Program-made: the position numbers and the translations under genes
Notes under the pieces: model-generated
The model's input: only the letters and a program-made list of their open reading frames with translations
Told to the model about the DNA's origin: nothing
The model's database searches: none
Shown here: in pieces, positions 24,110 through 43,067 of the stretch
How the letters are laid out: each line of letters starts with the position of its first letter
Position numbering within the stretch: the first letter of the stretch is position 1
Origin: Candidatus Latescibacterota bacterium
GTDB taxonomy: Bacteria; Latescibacterota; UBA2968; UBA8231
Assembly: GCA_965248265.1 (NCBI GenBank)
Contig: CBDFJF010000002.1
Location: forward strand, 3,395,052 to 3,459,051
Reading direction: 5' to 3'
DNA: 64,000 nt

Positions 24110-24186
24110 GAGCTATTAGCTCAGCTGGATAGAGCGCTAGCCTCCGGAGCTAGAGGTCACAGGTTCGAATCCTGTATAGCTCGCCA
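24110..24186 (+). tRNA. tRNA-Arg (anticodon CCG)
   Basis: Manual cloverleaf: acceptor GAGCTAT/ATAGCTC, anticodon loop CTCCGGA, T-loop TTCGAAT, 3' CCA. Confidence 0.9.
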
Positions 24187-24199
24187 TCTGTCGACAGGT

Positions 24200-24276
<77 letters not shown>

Positions 24277-24385
24277 TCGTTTAGTGAGATTGGGCTAGGA
24301 TTCGTCGACAAAGAGGATTCCTGGCCCATTCTTCGTTCACGTACACGTTCACGGACATGGTTGGTAGGCTGGAGGGTAGGTACGT

Positions 24386-24463
24386 CGGGGTGTAGCGCAG
24401 TCCGGTTAGCGCACCTGCTTCGGGAGCAGGGGGTCGGCGGTTCGAATCCGCCCACCCCGACCA
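24386..24463 (+). tRNA. tRNA-Pro (anticodon CGG)
   Basis: Acceptor CGGGGTG/CACCCCG, anticodon loop TTCGGGA, T-loop TTCGAAT, 3' CCA. Confidence 0.9.
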
Positions 24464-24553
24464 GCCAGCAATTAGAAGCAATCCAACTAACTCATTTCTC
24501 CTTTAGCTCCTCCGATTCCGCTACTCGCAGTTCCATCGTCTAGCAAGCCCACA

Positions 24554-25477
24554 ATGCGCCCCGTCGTTATCGCTGGACCCACTGCCGTTGGCAAGAGCAA
24601 GGTGGCTGTCAGTCTGGCCAGGGAATTGGGGGCTCAGATCATTTCTGTCGATTCTCGGCAGGTCTACCGATACATGGATATAGGCACTGCAAAGCCCGAT
24701 CGCGAAGATCTGGAGGCCGTCCCTCACCATCTGATCGATTTCATTGCGCCCGATGAACAGTACAGTGCGGGGACTTTTGGTCGCGACGCCGCAAGTATAG
24801 TGGCTCGTCTTGCCGGCAACGGAACTCGGGCTCTGCTCGTCGGTGGCTCAGGGTTGTATCTGTCTGCGTTTGTGGATGGGTTCTTTGACGCGGGTGAAGG
24901 AGATTTTGCCGCCGTCAGGAGGAACCTCCGAGAACGTCTGAAGCACGAGGGGCTGGAGGTCCTGTATCGCGAACTGGGCCAGCTCGATCCACACACTCAG
25001 CTCTCACTCGAAGCGAACGACGAGCAACGCATACTCCGAGCCCTTGAACTCGTGCCAGCGGGAGGGATGCAGCGATTGGCGAGGCACCAGGAACTGCACA
25101 CGACACAGTGTCCACCGCTGATGATCTGTTTGGGGATGGATCGACAGCAGCTCTATGACAGAATCGACGACCGAGTCAACGCCATGGTCGAGGCGGGCTG
25201 GGTTGCAGAAGTAAAGGGCCTTGTCGAGCGAGGGTTCGATGAAGGGGCCGTGGGGATGAATTCTCTTGGATATGGCGAGATTCTGTCGGTTTTGAGAGGA
25301 ACCAGCTCCCTGGATTTGGCGCTCGAGAGGATCAAGCGTCGCTCGAGGCAATACGCCAAGAGGCAGTTGACATGGTTCCGCAGGGATCGGCGCATGCGCT
25401 GGTTGGATATCGCTCAATTGGGCCATGATGGCGTCCTCGACCGGATCATGAGACAAACGACTACGGCGGACGCCTGA
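24554..25477 (+). CDS. miaA: tRNA dimethylallyltransferase
   Basis: P-loop AGPTAVGKS, DSRQVYR, and the typical length. Confidence 0.9.
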   Translation: MRPVVIAGPTAVGKSKVAVSLARELGAQIISVDSRQVYRYMDIGTAKPDREDLEAVPHHLIDFIAPDEQYSAGTFGRDAASIVARLAGNGTRALLVGGSGLYLSAFVDGFFDAGEGDFAAVRRNLRERLKHEGLEVLYRELGQLDPHTQLSLEANDEQRILRALELVPAGGMQRLARHQELHTTQCPPLMICLGMDRQQLYDRIDDRVNAMVEAGWVAEVKGLVERGFDEGAVGMNSLGYGEILSVLRGTSSLDLALERIKRRSRQYAKRQLTWFRRDRRMRWLDIAQLGHDGVLDRIMRQTTTADA

Positions 25478-25557
25478 GGGCGCGTTGTTCGCATTGACTC
25501 AACGGGTTAGCCCATTTATGTTAACGATCTTATTAGCTCTTTCAACGTCTTTTCGGA

Positions 25558-25596
25558 GCGGGAGTAGTTCAGGGGTAGAACGCAAGCTTCCCAAGC
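25558..25596 (+). pseudogene. 5' fragment of tRNA-Gly (anticodon CCC), truncated after the anticodon loop; candidate prophage junction
   Basis: GCGGGAG-TA-GTTC-AGGGGTA-GAAC-G-CAAGC-TTCCCAA matches acceptor, D-arm and anticodon arm. No 3' anticodon stem or T-arm follows. Confidence 0.6.
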
Positions 25597-25738
25597 CGCA
25601 CGTTTTGTCGCGCTAACTCTCTGAACCTCAGTAAGTTAACGCCACCCTGCCGGATCCCGCCTCCCAAATTGCTCCCGGAAATTTAATCTATAAAGGATTG
25701 TCCCACCTGTGGGACAAGTTTAAACAATTTGCGCTGTG

Positions 25739-25801
25739 TGCCCCACAAACGAGAACCAGCCGGTTTTTTCGTTGAAATTCGCCCCTCGCTGACGTATCTT
25801 G
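25739..25801 (+). promoter_or_regulatory. two direct copies of 12-mer TGCCCCACAAAC/TGCCCCACAAG (putative operator), near palindrome GTCCCACCTGTGGGAC (25700-25715)
   Basis: Exact repeat copies at 25739-25750 and 25791-25801. A third copy sits at 28562-28573 with an inverted partial copy at 28538-28550, upstream of the HTH regulator gene. Confidence 0.4.
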
Positions 25802-26153
25802 CCCCACAAGTTAGCTTGCAGCCATAGGTCTCGGGCTACCATAGCCCGTAGTCAATAAGCCCTAAGCCATTGTGTCACATGGGCTTGTCCGGTATCAACT
25901 GTGGGGCGTCCTCCAAATCCCTCCCTGCAGGAGGGGGTGCCGCATCTGGGACGCATGCAATTATGTAAAGATGTATGCGTCCATGTGCGCTAGTCATCTC
26001 CCCCACCAACACCACCAGCAACAACCGACACGCCACCAGGACAACGCCTATGCCGTTTACCCAGCCTCAAGCACTCTCATCGTCCTCGCATTGGTTGCGC
26101 ACCCAGGCATACCCACAACACCCATTGCCACTATTTTCAGATACTTGTTGTCC

Positions 26154-26176
26154 ATGACATATTGTCATCCTATATT
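26154..26176 (+). promoter_or_regulatory. palindromic operator ATGACATATTGTCAT plus -10-like TATATT, candidate rightward early promoter
   Basis: Perfect 6-nt arms in an AT-rich stretch about 70 nt upstream of the first early gene. Confidence 0.35.
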
Positions 26177-26235
26177 AAGTGACAGTCACGGGGCACACTG
26201 CCCCTGGCTACTCACTCACACTCGGAAGGTGAACC

Positions 26236-26400
26236 ATGGTAACCAAGCTCAAGATCAGTAGGCCCAAACAGGGAACCAGGCTCAAGAAGGTGGAATGTGA
26301 ATCATGCGGGTACACGGCACGCGTTACCAAGGTCTGGCTGGAGATGTTGGGACCGCCACTGTGCCCATGCAATCGCAAGGCAATGACGGTAGTCGATTAG
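26236..26400 (+). CDS. small zinc-ribbon protein (54 aa)
   Basis: SD GGAAGGTG then ATG. CESCGY...CPC cysteine pairs. Preceded by a hairpin-(CTCA)n leader. Confidence 0.5.
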   Translation: MVTKLKISRPKQGTRLKKVECESCGYTARVTKVWLEMLGPPLCPCNRKAMTVVD

Positions 26401-26473
26401 CAAGCGTTCGTTAACACCAGGGGCTTGGTGCCCCTGGTGCACTCACTCACTCACCAGAAGGAGCATCACAACC

Positions 26474-26716
26474 ATGACAACGCAAGCAAGGCAGCGACAA
26501 TTCGAGAAAGAATGGGCAGCCCGTCCCTGGCATTCTGTAGCGTGCCACACAGGCAGCGAAGCGGATGCGGCTCGCATTATAGCCCGTCAACGGGGGGTGT
26601 GCTTCCAGGCCGTGAATCTGGCTCACCAGGAGCACACCTTGATACTGGTTGACTGCCCGTCAACGGCACGTGTTGTACGTACCTGGATACGCAAGGAGCG
26701 CAAGCTGAACAGATAG
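26474..26716 (+). CDS. hypothetical phage protein
   Basis: SD AAGGAG then ATG. Same leader architecture. 80 aa. Confidence 0.5.
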   Translation: MTTQARQRQFEKEWAARPWHSVACHTGSEADAARIIARQRGVCFQAVNLAHQEHTLILVDCPSTARVVRTWIRKERKLNR

Positions 26717-26806
26717 GCAACACCAGGGGCGAGGGTGTTGACGTTTGGCACCCCCCCCTAAGTCCCCCCCCTCACTCACTCACTCACTCAAATCTGGAGG
26801 TCAGCA

Positions 26807-27316
26807 ATGAGCGCATACGTAGTAGAACGAGATCACATCCGCTATATGGTCGAGGCCGCTGTATCAGGCACGTACCACAGTGGCGGGTTACGCTGGGTCA
26901 CGGGGTCACGGGTCGAGGGCACGGCACAGTGCCACACTCTTGACCAGGGTGACCTGGAGCACGCTGCGCGGATCGGGCAAATGCTATGGGATGAAAACGT
27001 CAAGAGCGTTTGCTATAGGTACGATGAACCCGCCGACTCAACCGACTTGCCCGGCCCGGTAGGCGAAACCTATACCTACGAGGTGCACCCGCTCACCAGC
27101 AGCACGGTAGACCCGCTGGCCGTGTTCCAGGTGCTCAGTTGCTACGAGTACCAGACGTGCGAGCACCCTGGATGGAACGACAGCGAAGCCTATACAATCG
27201 TCCAGGCGATCAAAGACAAGATGATTCGGCGTATCAGCGATGATGCACCGGGTTGGGGCGACGTGCCCAAGCTGCAGCCGTTCACGGGCATATCGCTATC
27301 CTCACTCATCAGATAA
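26807..27316 (+). CDS. hypothetical phage protein
   Basis: SD GGAGG then ATG after a (CTCA)5 leader. 169 aa. Confidence 0.55.
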   Translation: MSAYVVERDHIRYMVEAAVSGTYHSGGLRWVTGSRVEGTAQCHTLDQGDLEHAARIGQMLWDENVKSVCYRYDEPADSTDLPGPVGETYTYEVHPLTSSTVDPLAVFQVLSCYEYQTCEHPGWNDSEAYTIVQAIKDKMIRRISDDAPGWGDVPKLQPFTGISLSSLIR

Positions 27317-27328
27317 CTGGAGGGAATC

Positions 27329-27565
27329 ATGGGAGTTCGTTCAAGCGCATGGACGGGCGAATCACTCCGTGCGTTTCGGGAATCATTCAAAAGCACGCGC
27401 AAGCCCAAGGGACGGGGGCGCTTTCGTCCTCACCTGTCGCGTGCTGAGTTCGCCAAGCGGCTGGAGATCACAGAGCGCACCCTGGCCCGTTGGGAAAACG
27501 GAGAAACCGCTATACCGGCAGTTGCTCAACAGCTGCTCACCGTGATGCGCTCGCGTCAACGGTAG
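27329..27565 (+). CDS. HTH XRE-like transcriptional regulator
   Basis: LSRAEFAKRLEITERTLARWENGET is a helix-turn-helix. SD GGAGGG. Confidence 0.6.
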   Translation: MGVRSSAWTGESLRAFRESFKSTRKPKGRGRFRPHLSRAEFAKRLEITERTLARWENGETAIPAVAQQLLTVMRSRQR

Positions 27566-28007
27566 CCCGTCGGCGCTTCCTCTTACCCGTGCCCGGTGTC
27601 GTCCGCAAGCTGGCGGCGCTGGGCACGATGGCTTTGCGCATAAACTTGCGTACCTGTCGCATCCGCTTCGGATTGCCCAGCAACTCAGCGAAACGCTCAG
27701 CATCCAGGCCCAACGCGTCATGCCAGACCGTCTGTGTGGTCAAGAAGGTCGCCGGATCTGGCTGAGTCACTATGGGCACCAGGCGATCGAGGCCGTTACC
27801 AGCTCGGCACTTAATCCCTACCCGCTTCCACTCTCCAGACAATACTCGTCCATTGCGCCGCCTCACCTGAGCAGAGGCTATACGTACCCGGTCCGCCGCC
27901 GCTGAGTGCCACACAAACCAATGTGAAATAGCCGTGTTCAGCACCCCGCAGGCCAATCGCCTATACCCTGCCATGTCGTCCAAATCCCTATACCCCCGTG
28001 TTTGCAT
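27537..28007 (-). CDS. hypothetical protein (start uncertain)
   Basis: 156-aa ORF divergent from the regulator at 28653. An inverted copy of the (CTCA)n-hairpin leader lies upstream at 28050-28110. Confidence 0.35.
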   Translation of the reverse strand: MQTRGYRDLDDMAGYRRLACGVLNTAISHWFVWHSAAADRVRIASAQVRRRNGRVLSGEWKRVGIKCRAGNGLDRLVPIVTQPDPATFLTTQTVWHDALGLDAERFAELLGNPKRMRQVRKFMRKAIVPSAASLRTTPGTGKRKRRRATVDASASR

Positions 28008-28652
28008 TTTAGTGTATATTCACCAGTAGGTCGGTGGGAGCACCGACCTACACCACCCTCCAGGTGGTGAGTGAGTGCCCCCGTTGACCCCTGGTTGACG
28101 GGGGTCTACTCATACCTACCACAAAGGGCGGCCCCCATTCAGGGAACCGCCCTCTTCGTTTTAGGAACCGCAGGCGCATGACTATATCGCGGGTGAGCCC
28201 TCCAATCGGCCCACGACACGCGTAGCGGTCAAGCCTGCGCTACAGGGCGCACGAACGCCCGCCCTTTGATATACCACCGGTCGGGTGGTGGCAACGCTCC
28301 CACGCTGCACCCTCTCGGGCTTCAGGACGGACAAAAGCTGCCCCATCCTCCAGGACGCTTACCGGCTGTACGCCACTCCTTTTACCATCGGTCGGGTAAC
28401 GTTTAAACGATACCACATTCCGCAAGAAAAGTCCACAACTTTCTGCGCCCCAGCAGCTTACTCAATTTCTGGTTCATAGCAATGCGCTATGCTATGCCAC
28501 TGTGCGCCATGAGTGGATTGTTGGTTCTGTGGTGGGGCAAAATCCAACTATTTTGCCTGTATGCCCCACAAACTAAAATCCGGTCATTTTTCGCTTGCGG
28601 CGGGGTGTTTAAATGGCTTTCTTGCTATTCACTGGAGGGTGGTTTAAACGGT

Positions 28653-31327: not shown

Positions 31328-31574
31328 AATCAACGTGCGTGACCTCTACGAGGTGAAGGCGCAGCGCAAAAAAGTCACCGACGACGTAGACGACATCGTG
31401 GTCCAGGTACCGCTGCTGACCATAGACCAGGTGACCCACGCCCACGACTGGCACGCCAAGCGGCTGCGGGAAGTGGACGCGGTGATTCAACAGGCGAACT
31501 GGGCCACAGACGTAGAGGTCGCAGACATGAGCGACTACGAGCCCCCACCCGAACTGCAGAAGAGGTCAAGATGA
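31257..31574 (+). CDS. hypothetical protein
   Basis: Strong SD AGGAGGAAGGGGA then ATG. 105 aa. Stop overlaps the SPFH start. Confidence 0.45.
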   Translation: MQVKLAEALLRRKELQQKVKQLAEINVRDLYEVKAQRKKVTDDVDDIVVQVPLLTIDQVTHAHDWHAKRLREVDAVIQQANWATDVEVADMSDYEPPPELQKRSR

Positions 31575-32431
31575 GTCCGAAAACAACCGTCCGCTTAGGC
31601 ATAGGCCTTGTCGGTGTGATGTTCGTGATGATCGTACTGGCTGCCAGCTTTGAAACCGTGAGTACCAACCACGTCGCTGTGGGCCTGCGCTTCGGCAAGG
31701 TAACCGGCGACGTGCTGGACGAAGGGCTACACCTGGTTAACCCGATTCTCGACTGGGACCACTTCAACTGCTTGGAGCAGGAAGTCACCTTCAAGGGCAT
31801 CACGGTGCCCGCCGAGGATCAGATGAAGGCGACGATGGATGTCACGGTGAAGGGCAGGTTCATGCCCGCCCATGCCGTGGTGCAGCGTCGGGAAACCGGC
31901 ACGCAGCAGCAGGTGATCGCCACGCACTTTCAGCCCATTGCACGCGGTGCCCTGCGCGAGGCGGGACGCTCCACGTCGAAGGTCGAGGAGTTCTACGAGG
32001 ACTCCAAGGTTGAGGAGTACCAATCCAACGCCCTGGCCATCCTGCAGGAAGGGCTGTCTGCCAAGGGCTACGAGATCACCGACGTGATCGTGCGAGACGT
32101 GAGCCTGCCCGAAGTCATCACCGCTGCCATCACCGCCAAGAAACAGCGGGAACAGGAGGTTGAGAAACAGCGGGCTGAGCTGAGCCGCATCGAGCTGGTG
32201 GCCGAACAGAAGGTCAAGCAGGCCATCGCGGACCGTGATGCCGCCGTGGAGATAGCGGTGGCCATCAGGGTGACCGCCGAAGCCGAGGCTTACGCCATCG
32301 AGGTCAAGAAGGCTGAGCTAACCGACCAGTACATCTCGTTTAAACTGGCCGAGGCGTGGGACGGGGGACTGCCGAAGCTGATGGGTAGCGGCGTCGTGCC
32401 GTTTCTCGACCTCACCGCGATGACGCAGTAA
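31571..32431 (+). CDS. SPFH/Band-7 (stomatin/prohibitin/HflK-like) membrane protein
   Basis: N-terminal TM helix, SPFH core, then the charged coiled coil AKKQREQEVEKQRAELSRIELVAEQKVKQA... typical of HflK/C and stomatins. 286 aa. Confidence 0.85.
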   Translation: MSPKTTVRLGIGLVGVMFVMIVLAASFETVSTNHVAVGLRFGKVTGDVLDEGLHLVNPILDWDHFNCLEQEVTFKGITVPAEDQMKATMDVTVKGRFMPAHAVVQRRETGTQQQVIATHFQPIARGALREAGRSTSKVEEFYEDSKVEEYQSNALAILQEGLSAKGYEITDVIVRDVSLPEVITAAITAKKQREQEVEKQRAELSRIELVAEQKVKQAIADRDAAVEIAVAIRVTAEAEAYAIEVKKAELTDQYISFKLAEAWDGGLPKLMGSGVVPFLDLTAMTQ

Positions 32432-32639: not shown

Positions 32640-32714
32640 GCAACGGTAGCTCACTGGTAGAGCATCAGCCCTGAGAGCTGAGTGTAGCGGGTTCAATTCC
32701 CGTCCACTGCATCC
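32640..32714 (+). tRNA. tRNA-like element (degenerate; possible phage tRNA pseudogene)
   Basis: Canonical D-arm TAGCTCACTGGTAGAGC, perfect anticodon stem TCAGC/GCTGA, T-arm GCGGGTTCAATTCCCGT. Acceptor has 2 of 7 mismatches and C at position 33. Confidence 0.3.
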
Positions 32715-32890: not shown

Positions 32891-33304
32891 ATGATCTACA
32901 CCACCGTCACATGGCCACGTGAACGCTGGCCCAACTTCACCTTCAACGAGATGGCCTGCACCCACTGCGGCGTGTGTGATGTGGACGAGCTGTTCATGGA
33001 CACGCTGCAGCTGATCCGCAACGAGCTGAGCACCGCCATGCAGATCACCAGCGGCTACCGCTGCGCCGATCACCCTATAGAAGTCCTCAAGGCGAAGCCT
33101 GGGAGCCATGAGAAGGGTTGCGCCGTGGATGTGGCCTGTTGGGGGGCTCGCGCCTACCGACTCCTACAGGCCGCGTGCAAGGACGACAGGATGGCGGGTA
33201 TTGGCATCCACCAGAGCCCCAAGGCCCCCAATGCCAAACGATTCCTGCATCTGGATCAGCTGGTAGCCGACTATCGCCCGGCGCTGTGGAGCTACGACAA
33301 ATGA
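32891..33304 (+). CDS. peptidase M15A-family (YcbK/endolysin-like) cell-wall hydrolase
   Basis: NFTFNEMACTHCG...SGYRCADHP...HEKGCAVD matches the Peptidase_M15_3 pattern. 137 aa. Confidence 0.65.
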   Translation: MIYTTVTWPRERWPNFTFNEMACTHCGVCDVDELFMDTLQLIRNELSTAMQITSGYRCADHPIEVLKAKPGSHEKGCAVDVACWGARAYRLLQAACKDDRMAGIGIHQSPKAPNAKRFLHLDQLVADYRPALWSYDK

Positions 33305-33654: not shown

Positions 33655-33989
33655 ATGAACTATCAGACATCCTGGCCCAGGCGGCAGCTGACGCCGAGCA
33701 AGTGCGAGCGGAAGCCATAGATGTCAAGCAAGAAGAGGCGGAGGGCAAGGCGGCCAGACGCCGCCACGTGCACTCCATACCCAAGATGTTCTTTACGTGG
33801 CGCGAGGCGGCCTGGGTATCGGGCATCGGTATGCGGACGCTACAGCGCTTCGCCAAAGAAGGCCAGCTCAGAATCTGCCGTATCGGCGGCGTCACCCGTA
33901 TCCGCCGTGAGGACTTGGACCAACTCGCAATCGACCACATGGTGACTGATGACGACGATAACGGACCCAACATACAACAATCAGTTTGA
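33651..33989 (+). CDS. excisionase-family HTH (MerR/Xis-like) DNA-binding protein
   Basis: FFTWREAAWVSGIGMRTLQRFAKEGQLRICRIGGVTRIRREDLDQL is an HTH_17-type motif. Confidence 0.6.
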   Translation: MNELSDILAQAAADAEQVRAEAIDVKQEEAEGKAARRRHVHSIPKMFFTWREAAWVSGIGMRTLQRFAKEGQLRICRIGGVTRIRREDLDQLAIDHMVTDDDDNGPNIQQSV

Positions 33990-34461
33990 CCAGTATTTCA
34001 ACGAGGATGGCCCGGAACCGATGGACATACGGGCCGATGAGGACGCCGAGGTGCACGCCCGCTGCCTGCGTTATTGGCAGGAGCAGTATGAGGTAGTATC
34101 CAATCGCTTTGACGAAGAGGTGGCCCGCCTGATCGGACGCGCCGAGAAGGCCCTGAATAGCATCAGACGGCGCGAAGCATGGCACGAGGCGTCCCTGAAG
34201 ATGTTTTACCAGTACAAGGGCGAGAAGCGGCTGGTAATGGCCAACGCCACGCTGTCGAGCCAGAAGGGGCGGGAGCGCATCGAGGTGGCCGATATGGACG
34301 CCCTGGAGTCCTGGGCGGTGACTGAGGGCTACGAGAGTCTTCTAAACCGGAAGGTGGACCCCGACAAGGCGGCCATCATGGCGCACGTCAAGAACACGGG
34401 CGAGGAGCCGCCGGGGGTGAGCCTGGAGCGCGGAGAGGATTCCTTTAAGGTGAAATTTTGA
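33949..34461 (+). CDS. Mu Gam-like host-nuclease inhibitor / DNA-end-binding protein
   Basis: C-terminal pattern KRLVMANATL...IEVADMDALESW...DPDKAAIM...GVSLERGEDSFKV parallels Mu Gam (GMDAV...NKEAIL...GIEDFSI). Confidence 0.5.
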   Translation: MTTITDPTYNNQFDQYFNEDGPEPMDIRADEDAEVHARCLRYWQEQYEVVSNRFDEEVARLIGRAEKALNSIRRREAWHEASLKMFYQYKGEKRLVMANATLSSQKGRERIEVADMDALESWAVTEGYESLLNRKVDPDKAAIMAHVKNTGEEPPGVSLERGEDSFKVKF

Positions 34462-35561
34462 CGCTGAGCTTTGAGGCAGTAGACCAAGCGCGGGCGTACA
34501 CACAAACTCGCGGGGTGCCCCATATTGAAACAGCACGTATCGCCAATGCAATGTTTCATCAGCTGCGGCAAGACTCCTACGTCAAGCGGTATACCAGACA
34601 AAGCATCACAAACGCTGTTGGGGTCATAGCAGAGCAGCGCACAATGGCGTTAACATTAACCTCAACTCTGGCGTCAGATTCGCCAATGGCGGACACTATC
34701 GAGTCAAGGGTGTTAACGTCCTTTGACGATGGCGCTCTAAAATTTAGCAATCGCCTTTCGGGGCAAAAAGAAGCCCTCAAAGTAGGTAATCGAGCCGTGA
34801 GTAAAAAAGAAGCCCTGTTTTGGGTGGCCAGCTCAATGCTGATGGCACAGGGGTATCTATGGCGTGATAATATTCGCATGATTGCCGCGCAGGGAACGGT
34901 CCCTGTGCACGTGTTTGGCAGGGACTCTTTACCCTACCCCATGATGTATTGGTGCTTTGAAAATGCAGCGTGCCTTGACCCATTTGACAGAGGGGTTATT
35001 CCAAGACTGCCGCCCAGCGTAAGAGGGGTCGCCGAGCCCGGCGACGAGTTGTCTGGCGATGGGATTTTGGTGATAGACCAAGAGCAATGTGTCGTGATGG
35101 TGCAGATGGGTTCCTTGGAAAAACAAAATGGTGAGTGCTACTGCGTTTGTGACCACTTCACCCTGCCTTACGGACTGAGGTTCCCTGACGACTTCCCAGC
35201 CCAAACACGGGAACCGATACGAGTGCTCCTTGCCTTGCTATCGTTCCTTAATTCACCATTCATCGAAAAAAAACGAGAACGACCTAACCGTACAAGCAGG
35301 CGCGCAGCTCAACGCGAAAACGGCGAAGAAAACTCGCCCGATGTCTTTGTCGTTAAGCTACGACAGCCCGCCCACGCAACGGCAGCAAAAAAAGGCGGCG
35401 AGGTGGACGTAGACTGGAAGCATCAATGGCTGGTGCGAGGCCACCATCGCGCACAGTGGTATCCGTCAACGCAAACGCACAAGGTGATCTGGATTGCGCC
35501 CTACGTGAAGGGACCAGAAGATGCGCCCATGCTGGAGAAGGTGTACGATGTCGTGCGGTAG
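34458..35561 (+). CDS. hypothetical protein on locally lower-GC DNA (moron candidate)
   Basis: 367-aa ORF at about 50% GC in a 60-65% GC context. Cys cluster ECYCVCDH. C-terminal WLVRGHHRAQWYPSTQTHKVIWIAPYVKGP. No recognised domain. Confidence 0.5.
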   Translation: MTLSFEAVDQARAYTQTRGVPHIETARIANAMFHQLRQDSYVKRYTRQSITNAVGVIAEQRTMALTLTSTLASDSPMADTIESRVLTSFDDGALKFSNRLSGQKEALKVGNRAVSKKEALFWVASSMLMAQGYLWRDNIRMIAAQGTVPVHVFGRDSLPYPMMYWCFENAACLDPFDRGVIPRLPPSVRGVAEPGDELSGDGILVIDQEQCVVMVQMGSLEKQNGECYCVCDHFTLPYGLRFPDDFPAQTREPIRVLLALLSFLNSPFIEKKRERPNRTSRRAAQRENGEENSPDVFVVKLRQPAHATAAKKGGEVDVDWKHQWLVRGHHRAQWYPSTQTHKVIWIAPYVKGPEDAPMLEKVYDVVR

Positions 35562-35582
35562 TCCCGATAACGAGGGTTATCG

Positions 35583-35759
35583 TTAGTCCGTAACAATCCG
35601 CTCGTTGACGTACGCCTCTACATCCTGCCGCTTGATCCGCACACACTTGCCCAGCTTGATGTGCGGCAATTCCTTCCGCTGCAACAGCAAGCGGATGTAG
35701 CGCGGTGTTACCTGCCACATCTCCGCAACCTCATCCACCGTCATCAGCTGTTCCATCGC
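35583..35759 (-). CDS. AlpA/Xis-like HTH DNA-binding protein
   Basis: MTVDEVAEMWQVTPRYIRLLLQRKELPHIKLGKCVRIKRQDV. The ORF extends to 35837; an internal Met is the likely start. Confidence 0.5.
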   Translation of the reverse strand, partial: AMEQLMTVDEVAEMWQVTPRYIRLLLQRKELPHIKLGKCVRIKRQDVEAYVNERIVTD

Positions 35760-35788
35760 AGACCCATCATAAGAGGCCTTATCGTTAG

Positions 35789-36001
35789 TCACGCATCGGC
35801 GCAGCAGCTGGGCACCCAATCCTGCGTGTAGTCGCAATCGAGGCAGTACAACCCACCCCGCCCCACGCGCAGTGGCCGATGGCTGTGCCCTCCGTCACCG
35901 CAAGTTAGCTCATGGAAATTTGGGTTTTCCTGCCACCGTCTAATGGCGTCGATTTCATACTGTGAAAATGGTGCCTTAACTTGCGGCATCTTACTACTCA
36001 T
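35789..36001 (-). CDS. small Cys-rich protein
   Basis: 70-aa ORF with CGDGGHSH...CLDC...CC. Confidence 0.35.
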   Translation of the reverse strand: MSSKMPQVKAPFSQYEIDAIRRWQENPNFHELTCGDGGHSHRPLRVGRGGLYCLDCDYTQDWVPSCCADA

Positions 36002-39030: not shown

Positions 39031-39625
39031 CGCTAAACCGTGGTCCACCCGGCACGATGTCGAAGGACGTGCACTCTGCGTCGGTGGGCTTCTTTGACCA
39101 CGGGTACGGCCGGTAGGAGACACACCGTTTAAATGCCTCCTTCTGCTCCTTGTTGGCACGCAGCATCTTACCCGGCGATATTTCGTCGTCCCACATGAGA
39201 CGCACGCACGACAGCACTGCATCAAAATAGCGCACCCATAGTGTTGACCCCCAAATCATCCGCGAGCCGAACGCGCAAGCCGTCGCCAGCATCGACATCG
39301 CAACAACATCCAGTAGGCCCACTTCGTCCCAGCCACGGATGTAATCAAGGACAAAGTTAATAGGGAGCCCAATGGCACAGGCCGCGACCGGGATTACGTT
39401 CCCTCTTCTAAGGCCTACCCAACGGTTGCGTGCGGTGTGCATGTAATCCACCATCCGCGCCATAGCTACCTGAGTCTCGGACTCTTGGGGCTGGTGCAAC
39501 TGCGACGGCACCGGAGGGGGTGCCTTGCCCCCGCAGCGCCAGCAGAAGTACTGGTCAGGCGGCGGGTCCATGAACAGCTGCCCCGCGTACATCGGCTCCT
39601 CACAGCTACAGCGCTTGTCTGTCAC
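39023..39625 (-). CDS. membrane protein with N-terminal zinc ribbon
   Basis: CSCEEP...CWRCGG followed by hydrophobic helices. 200 aa. Confidence 0.45.
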   Translation of the reverse strand: MTDKRCSCEEPMYAGQLFMDPPPDQYFCWRCGGKAPPPVPSQLHQPQESETQVAMARMVDYMHTARNRWVGLRRGNVIPVAACAIGLPINFVLDYIRGWDEVGLLDVVAMSMLATACAFGSRMIWGSTLWVRYFDAVLSCVRLMWDDEISPGKMLRANKEQKEAFKRCVSYRPYPWSKKPTDAECTSFDIVPGGPRFSDD

Positions 39626-39843
39626 AGCGTAACTTCGCCGCGCTTGATGGCCAGCAGTGCCAGTGGAACAGCACCCCGCGTGTCGAGCTTAATCATCAAG
39701 GTCGCACGGTGCGTCTCCACAGTGCGGACGCCAATGCCCAGCTCGTCGGCAATCTCCAAGTTTTGGTAACCACAGGCGATGAACTGCCAAACTTCCAGCT
39801 CACGCTCGGTCAGTTCATCGCCTGCCCTTGCTTTTGGTTTCAT
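39622..39843 (-). CDS. LuxR/GerE-type HTH DNA-binding protein (no receiver or ligand domain)
   Basis: LTERELEVWQFIACGYQNLEIADELGIGVRTVETHRATLMIKL. Confidence 0.6.
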   Translation of the reverse strand: MKPKARAGDELTERELEVWQFIACGYQNLEIADELGIGVRTVETHRATLMIKLDTRGAVPLALLAIKRGEVTL

Positions 39844-39879
39844 GGGGAACCCCCTTTATAGGTGAAATTTGGGGGCACC

Positions 39880-40263
39880 TCATTTCGCTTCGTGGTAGAC
39901 CTTGGGGTGCGTCGCCTCACGCAGCATGTGATCGGGATACACGTCAGTCATCCCGGTGCGCACGCCCAAGCGGATGGGCTCCTTCGCTACCATGTTGTGG
40001 GTGATGGCAGCTTTGGTGAGACCAGCGCTGCTGTACAGATTGAGCTTGCGCATCAGGCTGTTCTTAATGGCGGAGACGGTTTGCCATTTGATGGACAGCA
40101 TTTCACCAATCTCCTCCAGATCAAACTCGCAAGCGACCAGCTCCCACACATCGCGCTCGCGTTGAGTCAGGTTGTCGCCGGGACGTGCAAGCCTACGAAA
40201 GACTCTCTTCTCTCCGCGCTTGAGCTTCTTCAAGGGCGTTGGTTTTCTCGTTCGCTTCGCCAT
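39880..40263 (-). CDS. LuxR/GerE-type HTH DNA-binding protein with basic N-terminus
   Basis: LTQRERDVWELVACEFDLEEIGEMLSIKWQTVSAIKNSLMRKL. Confidence 0.55.
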   Translation of the reverse strand: MAKRTRKPTPLKKLKRGEKRVFRRLARPGDNLTQRERDVWELVACEFDLEEIGEMLSIKWQTVSAIKNSLMRKLNLYSSAGLTKAAITHNMVAKEPIRLGVRTGMTDVYPDHMLREATHPKVYHEAK

Positions 40264-40923
40264 TTACATTGTCTCCAGTGCTGCCGTGTAGGCGTCTATG
40301 GATACCTGAATCGCGTCACGCTGTGCCGTGAGGTCATCAATGATTGCCTGCGTCCGACCGGGGAAGTCGTTGGTGCTGATACCTGACGTGGTGACGGCCT
40401 TGCCTGCGCGCTGGCCGGGAGACTCGTAGCCCTGCGCTCTGGCCGCACGCGCTTCAGCCGACTTGACCCGCGCATCTGCCAACGTCGCCCTGCGTTTCTC
40501 TGTCGTTACCTCAACCTCAGCGCCGAACGTCCTGACCCACGCGGTCAGGCTGTTGGATGACACGCCGACATCTCTGGCAACGTCACTGTTCGTTTCGCCT
40601 GCGAGGATGCGAGCCACAGCCTTGCGCTTGAAGCCGTCCGTGTAGCGCTTCTGCGCCTTCCCCTTCTGTGGGCCTTTGCCCGCTCGTGCGACTGCCGCCT
40701 GCCCTTGCATCCGTGTGGTCTCGGATTTTACGGGGGAGATGAGTTTCTCATCATTACACCAGCGACTGACGCTCTTCTGGTTGAGTCCCATAGCGTCGGC
40801 AATTGCCGACTGCGACTCTTTGCCTTTGAGAAACCGCCTGACCGCCTGCTTCTTGATTCGGATGCCGATGCGAGGCCCCTTCGCGTTCTCTGCTGTCGGC
40901 GCTGCTGCTTCCGTCGTTTCCAT
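40264..40923 (-). CDS. DNA-binding protein with two transposase-type HTH (IS3 OrfA-like) repeats
   Basis: RRFLKGKESQSAIADAMGLNQKSVSRW and FKRKAVARILAGETNSDVARDVGVSSNSLTAWVR. SD AGGAGG before ATG 40923. No DDE partner. Confidence 0.5.
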   Translation of the reverse strand: METTEAAAPTAENAKGPRIGIRIKKQAVRRFLKGKESQSAIADAMGLNQKSVSRWCNDEKLISPVKSETTRMQGQAAVARAGKGPQKGKAQKRYTDGFKRKAVARILAGETNSDVARDVGVSSNSLTAWVRTFGAEVEVTTEKRRATLADARVKSAEARAARAQGYESPGQRAGKAVTTSGISTNDFPGRTQAIIDDLTAQRDAIQVSIDAYTAALETM

Positions 40924-40963
40924 TACGTCCTCCTGAGTTGTATGGATTTTGAACAAGCCAGTG

Positions 40964-42015: not shown

Positions 42016-42209
42016 AGGGCGGCAGCTGTATCTACTACAACGGCATCGACCACGGCTGCAGCAAAGGCGTGGAGATCATCACCTCCTTCGGTGCTGATGA
42101 GGCCCTGATTCCCTGTATCAGCGGGGGTGATGATGGCAAGCGGGCTCGTTGTTCGCTGCATCGCTTGCCGACCACGCGGGAGATGTATGAAGCCAATCAA
42201 AAGGGGTGA
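42012..42209 (+). CDS. small Cys-rich protein
   Basis: ATGA coupling. 65 aa. Confidence 0.3.
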   Translation: MKGGSCIYYNGIDHGCSKGVEIITSFGADEALIPCISGGDDGKRARCSLHRLPTTREMYEANQKG

Positions 42210-42318
42210 GCGGTGAACGGGGCCGTCTTGGAAGCGGGGGAGCACTCACGCAGTTCTCCTTCCCAGCGCCGTTCACCCTGTTAAACTAAAGCCCGCTAAA
42301 CTTTAATTGGAGGTAATC

Positions 42319-42537
42319 ATGTTAACGCGTCGAGGGTACGCGCACGGGGGACTGATGCGCTGCTGTATCGCTACCCTGGATGAAGCGCATGAAATCGGCA
42401 TTTTCCATGATGCGGTGTCGATGAAGTGCATGTATTGCCGTACTAACATGGTATTGGACGAGGAACGGGAGATGTTCCGCTGGGAAGGGGCGTTTAACGA
42501 GCAGGATTGTCCTCCCGACGATTGGGGGCAGCCCTGA
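42319..42537 (+). CDS. small zinc-finger-like protein
   Basis: SD GGAGG then ATG. CC...C..C...C. Confidence 0.4.
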   Translation: MLTRRGYAHGGLMRCCIATLDEAHEIGIFHDAVSMKCMYCRTNMVLDEEREMFRWEGAFNEQDCPPDDWGQP

Positions 42538-42569
42538 TAGTCGATAACTGGCAGGATATCGCCCGAGCG

Positions 42570-43067
42570 TTGCTCATAAAGCAAAAGCGCGGGGCGTTTT
42601 GCGAGCACGATGAGTTTGAGCGGCTGCACGATCAGTCGGCCTATCGCTGCAGGGGTTGCAACGAGCAGGTATCCCACCTTGACATCTATGAGGATAGAAA
42701 TATGGGAACGCTCAATTATAGACCGGGATTCAGTAAATACGATGTGCTCGACGCCGATTGGACCGATGACGATGGCGGCATCACCGAAAGCCTGTGGGAC
42801 AGGGTGTGGAGCAAGCAAATCCAGAAGATGGCACCGACGCTGGTGGACAACGTGATGGGCAAGGAAATCATGGAACCGGTCTATTTTCGGCCCTTCGAGG
42901 CCGGGGAAACGCTTACGGCATCCCGTTTAAACAGCGCGTTTGAGTCGGTGATGGACTACAACCGGCTGCAGAGCACGAAGCCGATGCGCATGGGCAGATT
43001 GACGGGAATTTCGCTCTCTCAACGGCCTTCTTTTGCTGAATTTTCATCCTTCCCTGCTTTTTCGTAG
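42570..43067 (+). CDS. hypothetical protein with N-terminal C-H-C-C motif (start uncertain)
   Basis: CEHDEFERLHDQSAYRCRGC. TTG start or ATG 42702 possible. Confidence 0.35.
   Translation: MLIKQKRGAFCEHDEFERLHDQSAYRCRGCNEQVSHLDIYEDRNMGTLNYRPGFSKYDVLDADWTDDDGGITESLWDRVWSKQIQKMAPTLVDNVMGKEIMEPVYFRPFEAGETLTASRLNSAFESVMDYNRLQSTKPMRMGRLTGISLSQRPSFAEFSSFPAFS

Follow-up and report, generated by a model that had tools for sequence, protein, structure and literature searches.

A predicted AcrVA2-like fold for an orphan accessory protein encoded where two operons converge in a Latescibacterota prophage

What is the function of a prophage gene that resembles no known family and lies where two operons run into each other? 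We asked this question of a 64,000-nucleotide stretch from a Candidatus Latescibacterota bacterium (GenBank assembly GCA_965248265.1, contig CBDFJF010000002.1, positions 3,395,052 to 3,459,051, forward strand), which we call the window. An earlier reading of the letters alone (the sequence-only reading) had drawn attention to an open reading frame of 367 amino acids at 34458-35561, of low GC content and without any recognisable match, and had proposed a moron or defence role for it. The frame, here called ORF367, and its place at the meeting point of the two operons are as described: it lies on the + strand between a TTG start and a TAG stop, and 21 bp separate the stop codons of the two convergent operons. 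Our analysis suggests that ORF367 is probably a structural relative of AcrVA2 and FinQ, remote and rewired, and that its role would probably be counter-defence or the silencing of a competitor.

The absence of a recognisable match held. ORF367 gave no family match in a local copy of Pfam-A, NCBIfam, PADLOC or the sequences of the PDB, and a profile made from 40 sequences of its family likewise gave none in direct family searches. None of the PADLOC-DB defence models matched ORF367 at E<=1. The blanks from Pfam-A are uninformative on membership of PF26125, the AcrVA2 family, because the local copy lacks PF26125 and AcrVA2 itself returns nothing from it. Structure prediction, one of the checks proposed with the sequence-only reading, gave a confident model and a fold match to AcrVA2 only. 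The model was computed by AlphaFold2 without templates, the input being the family's own 40-sequence alignment, and has a mean predicted local distance difference test score (pLDDT) of 84.2 and a predicted template-modelling score (pTM) of 0.84. Foldseek, run on 350,542 chains, returned a single match at E<=0.001, the AcrVA2 chain 7ci1_B, over the full length (E 1.9e-4, probability 1.00); the next-best match had E 0.064 and probability 0.13. The training structures of AlphaFold2 predate 7CI1, which was released in October 2020, and the model should therefore not be recalling that structure. In a library of viral models, 16 uncharacterised phage proteins matched, several of them from jumbo phages.

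To our knowledge the AcrVA2 fold is otherwise unique, and we know of no other prokaryotic protein for which it has so far been reported that recognition of a protein leads to destruction of the mRNA encoding it. AcrVA2 is an anti-CRISPR of a Moraxella bovoculi prophage (PDB 7CI1/7CI2, PF26125, phrog_6160). It inhibits Cas12a: it attaches to Cas12a's N-terminal polypeptide, and translation-dependent loss of the Cas12a mRNA follows (bioRxiv 10.1101/2022.11.29.518452; PMC13131331). In its C-terminal region H286, R288 and H291 are essential, while activity depends in part on W79 and D89; some 1,800 orthologs are found on mobile elements, most of which lack Cas12a, and the C-terminal domains of AcrVA2 and FinQ are conserved and their N-termini divergent (bioRxiv 10.1101/2022.11.29.518452). 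The same preprint reports that FinQ, an AcrVA2 homolog on IncI plasmids of E. coli, lowers the mRNA of F transfer genes. In our searches FinQ was confirmed as a member of the AcrVA2 family (tblastn 2e-16; hidden Markov model, HMM, of the AcrVA2-family alignment A2, 1e-28).

The ORF367 model consists of three domains, has no membrane-spanning segments and is that of a soluble protein. The helical N-terminal domain (residues 1-98; 34458-34751, + strand; helices H5-85) is the most variable part of the family, and in ORF367 it contains a disordered insertion not seen in the homologs. The middle alpha/beta domain (residues 99-301; 34752-35360, +) contains a conserved PYLW...LP.HV segment and the LAMLSFLNSPYI helix. 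After a linker of low model confidence (residues 302-321) comes the most conserved part, a C-terminal beta domain of four strands (residues 322-367; 35421-35558, +; strands E323-326, E329-335, E340-346 and E349-351). The mean top-residue fraction rises accordingly from 0.23 (residues 1-98) through 0.34 (99-301) to 0.73 (322-367). The last value bears out the conserved-looking C-terminus, WLVRGHHRAQWYPSTQTHKVIWIAPYVKGP, that had been noticed from the letters; within this block V326, H329, R331, Q333, G352 and P357 are invariant in 40 homologs. In the middle domain W135, P149, H151, F263 and S266 are conserved. The sequence-only reading had also pointed to a Cys cluster. ECYCVCDH is present (residues 226-233; 35133-35156, +), on a beta-strand of the model, but its three Cys columns all lack conservation and there are several homologs without any Cys; as a metal site the cluster was rejected, being unconserved among homologs.

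An AlphaFold2 model of AcrVA2 (pLDDT 88.9) has its secondary-structure elements in the same order as ORF367 from end to end. Both models open with N-terminal helices, followed by a strand and a helix (E84-88/H90-95 with GIY..D in AcrVA2; E131-135/H137-145 with GYLW.D in ORF367), a beta-meander, a long helix (H196-210 with LLWLC in AcrVA2; H248-265 with LLALLSF in ORF367) and the C-terminal beta domain. In both, the latter is built as a strand, an RG turn, two 7-residue strands and a 3-residue strand (E286-288, R289-G290, E291-297, E304-310 and E313-315 in AcrVA2). Judged from the models, ORF367 has the three-domain fold described for AcrVA2 (PMC10846135), with a helical N-terminal, an alpha/beta middle and a four-strand beta C-terminal domain. 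The two differ before the last domain, where AcrVA2 has a long helix (258-277) and ORF367 a disordered linker (302-321).

In the C-terminal domain both models place the residues R-G-H at the same hairpin turn. In AcrVA2 the hairpin reads H286-I-R288-R-G-H291-W-H-G-Y-W296, and in ORF367 W324-L-V326-R327-G328-H329-H-R331-A-Q333-W334-Y335 (residues 324-335; 35427-35462, +), with invariant or near-invariant columns and with R-G as the turn. A non-significant hhalign alignment, taken together with the secondary-structure pattern, gives a tentative register in which R289-G290-H291 corresponds to R327-G328-H329, W296 to W334 and W309 to W345; in this register H291/H329 is invariant in both families. 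Instead of the H286-x-R288 of AcrVA2, the ORF367 family has its own invariant H329-x-R331-x-Q333 on the second hairpin strand. Assuming a two-residue turn, H329, R331 and Q333 would share one hairpin face with W324 and V326, and this would be the face on which AcrVA2 places H286, R288, H291 and H293, as derived from secondary structure rather than from coordinates.

A number of observations weigh against a relationship with AcrVA2, and some of them come from the same residues. The AcrVA2-family alignment A2 is headed by the M. bovoculi sequence, numbered as published, and shows no variation at W79, H286, R288 and H291 and almost none at D89. In the tentative register the essential H286 and R288 fall on W324 and V326 of ORF367. 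W79 has no counterpart, there being no Trp at the end of the corresponding helix H116-129, and positions 136 and 137 after the GYLW strand, compared with D89, carry an acidic residue in only about half of the family. The global template-modelling scores (TM-scores) of ORF367 against 7ci1_B are low (0.32 and 0.38); therefore either the domains are differently oriented or the match is partial. Among the sequence-based methods applied, none links the ORF367 family to AcrVA2. In precomputed Pfam annotation PF26125 is found on all 120 listed AcrVA2 homologs and on 0 of 63 ORF367 homologs. HMM cross-searches that included FinQ and actinobacterial members were negative; among 120 sequences the best E was 0.28. 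The hhalign score was 20.4 against 19.5 +/- 1.4 for decoys (E 0.068 over 101 colinear columns), and for the C-terminal domain only it was 15.2 against 14.3 +/- 3.2, though the expected register was found. A profile of the ORF367 family against the single AcrVA2 sequence, and larger alignments, gave no link; two weak colinear segments and the RGH register were recovered in the alignments, none of them above decoys. In PHROGs, AcrVA2, FinQ and Shewanella ORF43 belong to phrog_6160, and the ORF367 family to phrog_15934. Moreover, the mechanism of AcrVA2 itself is known from one preprint (bioRxiv 10.1101/2022.11.29.518452), with the decay step unexplained (also PMC13131331).

These observations can be taken to mean that the likeness to AcrVA2 is partial or convergent, and that ORF367 has an unrelated activity, for example that of a nucleic-acid-binding regulator or an enzyme working through the Arg-rich stretch 278-302 and the His/Arg hairpin. 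The negative outcome of every sequence-level test, the low global TM-scores and the replacement of two of the three essential C-terminal residues of AcrVA2 all favour such an explanation, as does the Arg-rich helix (R278, RR, R302) that adjoins the C-terminal domain. We nevertheless consider it unlikely. AcrVA2 is the single significant match of two different programs, on 48,000 to 350,000 chains, the order of secondary structure agrees over the full length with R-G-H at the same hairpin turn, and the two families share both the gradient of conservation and a distribution on mobile elements.

The case for a relationship with AcrVA2 and FinQ is thus one of predicted structures, without support from sequence statistics. 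The gene, its coupling to the upstream gene, the family with its distribution and the match in fold and topology, with R-G-H at the corresponding place, are observed, whereas shared descent with AcrVA2, the mode of action and any target, with its identity, are inferred. ORF367 is outside the AcrVA2 sequence family as now defined, and the most apt description is a variant of the AcrVA2 kind, or else an orphan family whose fold is AcrVA2-like. The combined statement, that ORF367 is an AcrVA2/FinQ-related accessory protein with an AcrVA2-like mode of action, we put forward tentatively, as somewhat short of an even chance. According to this statement ORF367 would be a stand-alone accessory protein of the prophage, produced alongside the early recombination genes (ERF, Gam). 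By analogy with AcrVA2 and FinQ, its variable N-terminal domain, as the putative target-recognition region, would recognise one particular target protein, probably during the translation of that protein. The target's mRNA would then be lost through the action of the conserved beta-hairpin domain at the C-terminus (R-G-H329-x-R331), and one specific host defence gene or gene of a competing element would be silenced. The accessory role of the sequence-only reading survives in part: a role in conflict between elements is still the best guess, but no known defence or abortive-infection protein was matched, and the lead is towards counter-defence instead.

The C-terminus of FinQ, RRGHWHTYW...KPRLIWLPPVPVN, is nearer than that of AcrVA2 to VRGHHRAQW...HKVIWIAPYVKG of ORF367, and both FinQ and ORF367 are found on mobile elements. 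Distant members of the ORF367 family have RGHWR.QW where AcrVA2 has RGHWHGYW. FinQ keeps H-I-R-R-G-H, however, and has no match to the HMM of the ORF367 family (E 5.8). The inhibition of rival plasmid transfer by FinQ is close in spirit to the exclusion that had been among the earlier suggestions.

How widespread is the family? ORF367 is a member of phrog_15934, which it matches at 1.3e-18 over its C-terminal third only (residues 252-361) and which carries no known function. A word-indexed search found 63 relatives of 280-370 amino acids, all unannotated and none with a Pfam domain, and an exhaustive profile search found 9,090 family representatives (50%-identity clusters) at E<=1e-3, 1,436 of them at E<=1e-30. 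Members occur on phage contigs 20-150 kb long, in Actinomycetota, Chloroflexota, Acidobacteriota, Gemmatimonadota and Proteobacteria genomes, and on 94 actinobacterial plasmids, of which some have two copies or three. On some large Mycobacterium plasmids (hits H2, H3 and H16) two or three separate copies of the C-terminal domain of the family were seen. With its variable N-terminus and conserved C-terminus, and as a single gene on diverse mobile elements, the family has these traits in common with AcrVA2 and FinQ. Streptomyces phage Yara gp103 is a family member (3e-120 against phrog_15934). Together with hypothetical proteins of actinobacterial plasmids it is a true sequence relative of ORF367, which shares with them the C-terminal HRW.VRGHWR.QW...IWI..Y.KGP; the HMM of the ORF367 family (A1) matches these proteins at 1e-24 to 1e-40. 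ORF367 differs from most of the distant members in having HHR for HWR and from all homologs in an insertion of its own, and none of these relatives is characterised. The insertion covers residues ~73-118 (34674-34811, +), where all homologs have a gap, and its residues 78-98 have a pLDDT below 50. An exact 13-nt direct repeat, AAAAAGAAGCCCT, is found within the insertion at 34765-34777 and 34804-34816 (+), spaced 39 nt; it codes for ..KEAL.. twice and resembles a small internal duplication.

The genomic setting of the relatives raises another possibility, namely that ORF367 belongs to the replication and recombination module, as an origin-binding initiator or as a partner of a helicase loader or primase, and is not a conflict protein. 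In many phages the relatives lie in early regions for replication, recombination and DNA modification; others are on plasmids. One relative (locus L174) comes directly after a DnaC/IstB-like loader, the loader's stop codon overlapping the start codon of the relative, another (L175) adjoins ERF, an AEP primase and an AAA_25 helicase, and Yara gp103 immediately follows the DNA primase. Of the neighbour families in 134 loci, a DnaB-like helicase, at 8 loci, is among the commonest, with a DNA ligase, at 7, and methyltransferases. ORF367 itself follows ERF and Gam, and a replication initiator is not recognisable within the window. Against this, no partner gene is conserved across the 134 loci, the top neighbour family being found in only 8, and no small helix-turn-helix (HTH) gene of the Aca-like type, Gam or ERF recurs as partner. 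An initiator of the lambda O type is not suggested by the DNA either: in and near ORF367 there are no iterons, tandem arrays or AT-rich stretch, only short repeats of two copies, and the minimum is 46% GC per 100 nt. The structural matches include no Rep, winged-helix or nuclease fold, AcrVA2 being the sole significant one. The plasmid copies lie beside toxin-antitoxin genes and number two or three per plasmid, which would be unusual for an initiator. Placement in an early region is equally expected of counter-defence genes. In Shewanella phage vB_SbaS_Y11 the true AcrVA2 homolog (L007, 23355-24431, - strand) is in an early region, where two genes annotated as antirestriction and an HTH gene adjoin it, a placement comparable to that of the ORF367 family in other phages. 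All in all we find a replication or recombination role rather improbable. Strand switches, which occur at 46% of family loci against a background of 44% with a crude ORF caller, are uninformative on a preference of the family for operon ends.

A third explanation follows from the composition of the gene and was the one favoured at the outset: that ORF367 is a classical moron or lysogenic-conversion gene, expressed from the prophage and protecting the lysogen through superinfection exclusion or abortive infection. Windowed GC and a homology check had been set beforehand; GC was not uniform, and no clear homology to a core replication protein was found. ORF367 has 53.3% GC against a window mean of 58.8% (standard deviation 2.0%, 1,104-nt windows), which places it in the lowest 0.4% of equal-sized windows in the window. 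The lower GC noted earlier is therefore real in direction, but the values were overdrawn: 53.3% and not about 50%, in flanking genes of 56-62% and not 60-65%. GC at third codon positions (GC3) is 0.57 for ORF367 and 0.65-0.81 for the genes next to it, and GC falls sharply at the 5' boundary of ORF367. The family as a whole is on average 1.4% lower in GC than its own loci, and ORF367 5.5% lower; the slight AT-richness of the family relative to its surroundings fits mobile cargo. The position at the end of an operon, at the convergence point, likewise suits a moron, and FinQ, from the structurally related family, excludes the transfer of a rival plasmid.

The expression signals around ORF367 do not fit this explanation. 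A scan upstream of the gene found no promoter-like site. The translation-initiation region (34447-34461, +), read directly from the sequence, has a Shine-Dalgarno AAGGTGA at 34447-34453, 4-5 nt 5' of the TTG start at 34458, and the start shares TTGA with the stop codon (34459-34461) of the upstream Gam-like gene. ORF367 is translationally coupled to that gene, and because its start codon overlaps the Gam stop it is expected to be made together with the early recombination genes (ERF, Gam), which are early lytic genes. On these two grounds, no promoter of its own and coupling to the upstream gene, we do not regard it as a classical moron. On the downstream side the sole candidate signal is a hairpin of 7 bp that lacks a T-run. 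Exclusion and abortive infection find no support in the PADLOC defence models or in the structural model with its lack of membrane-spanning segments, and the family is widespread in phages generally, in their early regions, and on plasmids, not at moron sites. We consider the moron explanation very unlikely. 

The start codon itself deserves a comment, since an identical protein in the database (P0001, 305 amino acids) starts later. We favour the long form from the TTG over the 305-residue call because of the Shine-Dalgarno, the TTGA overlap, the N-termini of the homologs and the model confidence. The first 15 residues of ORF367, MTLSFEAVDQARAY, resemble the N-termini of several homologs (MSLTFEALEETR, MVLTFAALDEVR and MTLTFEQLDAVR), with a common motif M.LTFE.LD..R, and residues 1-70 have a pLDDT of 86-97. 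P0001 appears to be truncated, starting 62 codons (34458-34643) too late.

Returning to the relationship with AcrVA2 and FinQ, we may ask what it would mean for the family. The authors of the AcrVA2 work proposed relatives aimed at other targets (bioRxiv 10.1101/2022.11.29.518452), and the idea of AcrVA2-like proteins acting on other targets across mobile elements is already in print; what this analysis adds is a proposed sister family, far larger and with another signature in the active hairpin. In its widest form, which we regard as doubtful, the proposal is that phrog_15934 (more than 9,000 clusters at 50% identity) would be a second, much larger branch of polypeptide-addressed silencers of the AcrVA2/FinQ type. 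In this branch the His/Arg pair would have shifted from the first hairpin strand (H286-x-R288) to the second (H329-x-R331), and hypervariable N-terminal domains would let the phages and plasmids that live in Actinomycetota, Chloroflexota, Gemmatimonadota and further phyla switch off many different host-defence or rival-element genes during translation. If the family is such a rewired relative, the number and host range of these silencers would go up several-fold, a natural 'mutant' of the essential hairpin would be on hand for working out the chemistry, and thousands of hypothetical phage and plasmid genes would have a testable function. If the likeness is only structural, a very common orphan family would still gain a confident fold, domain boundaries and candidate active residues.

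ORF367 is the last gene of the rightward operon, which consists of ERF (29629), SPFH (31571), a tRNA (32640), an M15 peptidase (32891), HTH_17 (33651), the Mu-Gam-like gene (33949) and ORF367. The Mu-Gam-like end-protection gene (33949-34461, +) matches phrog_2205 at 2e-10 and PF07352 at 2.4e-4, the latter under the Pfam cut-off. The leftward operon runs from about 42245 to 35583 and converges on ORF367; its last gene (35583-35837, -) is an HTH_17 protein of the excisionase/MerR-like kind (PF12728, 1.4e-13). The hairpin in the 21-bp gap (CGATAAC-GAGG-GTTATCG, 7 bp, 35565-35582), read from the sequence and lacking a T-run, is possibly a weak bidirectional terminator; the terminator scan did not report it.

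Positions 1 to about 25,500 of the window are chromosomal, with miaA (24554-25477) and three tRNAs; the closest named MiaA relatives, at about 54% identity, are from Gemmatimonadota, Latescibacterota and KSB1 metagenome-assembled genomes. The remainder is prophage and encodes, from 43977 on, SSB, large terminase, portal and major head protein. Its left boundary lies somewhere past miaA and the tRNA-Arg/Pro/Pro cluster (24110-24463), and no integrase was recognised on that side (24110-28500). The prophage has no close relatives in the phage collections searched: its Gam as query found nothing in IMG/VR, and its capsid protein is at most 30% identical to those of cultured phages. Other low-GC patches in the window are at about 25100-25500 and 42150-43050.

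Some further genes of the two operons are worth recording. For the phage-borne tRNA (32640-32711, +) ARAGORN gave the identity Ser(UGA), and Rfam also recognised a tRNA (53.8 bits); it has only 72 nt, lacks the long variable arm typical of tRNA-Ser, has C and not the usual U before the anticodon, and shows two apparent mismatches in the acceptor stem. The SPFH/Band-7 protein (31571-32431, +; Pfam 2.7e-25, phrog_200) is unusual cargo amid the recombination genes of an early operon. The M15 peptidase (32891-33304, +; phrog_894, 2.8e-23) is endolysin-like and lies in the early rightward operon, distant from the structural genes. In the leftward operon, at 39622-40956 (-), tandem LuxR/GerE-type regulators of 73 and 127 amino acids adjoin a 230-residue protein with HTH_Tnp_1 and HTH_28.

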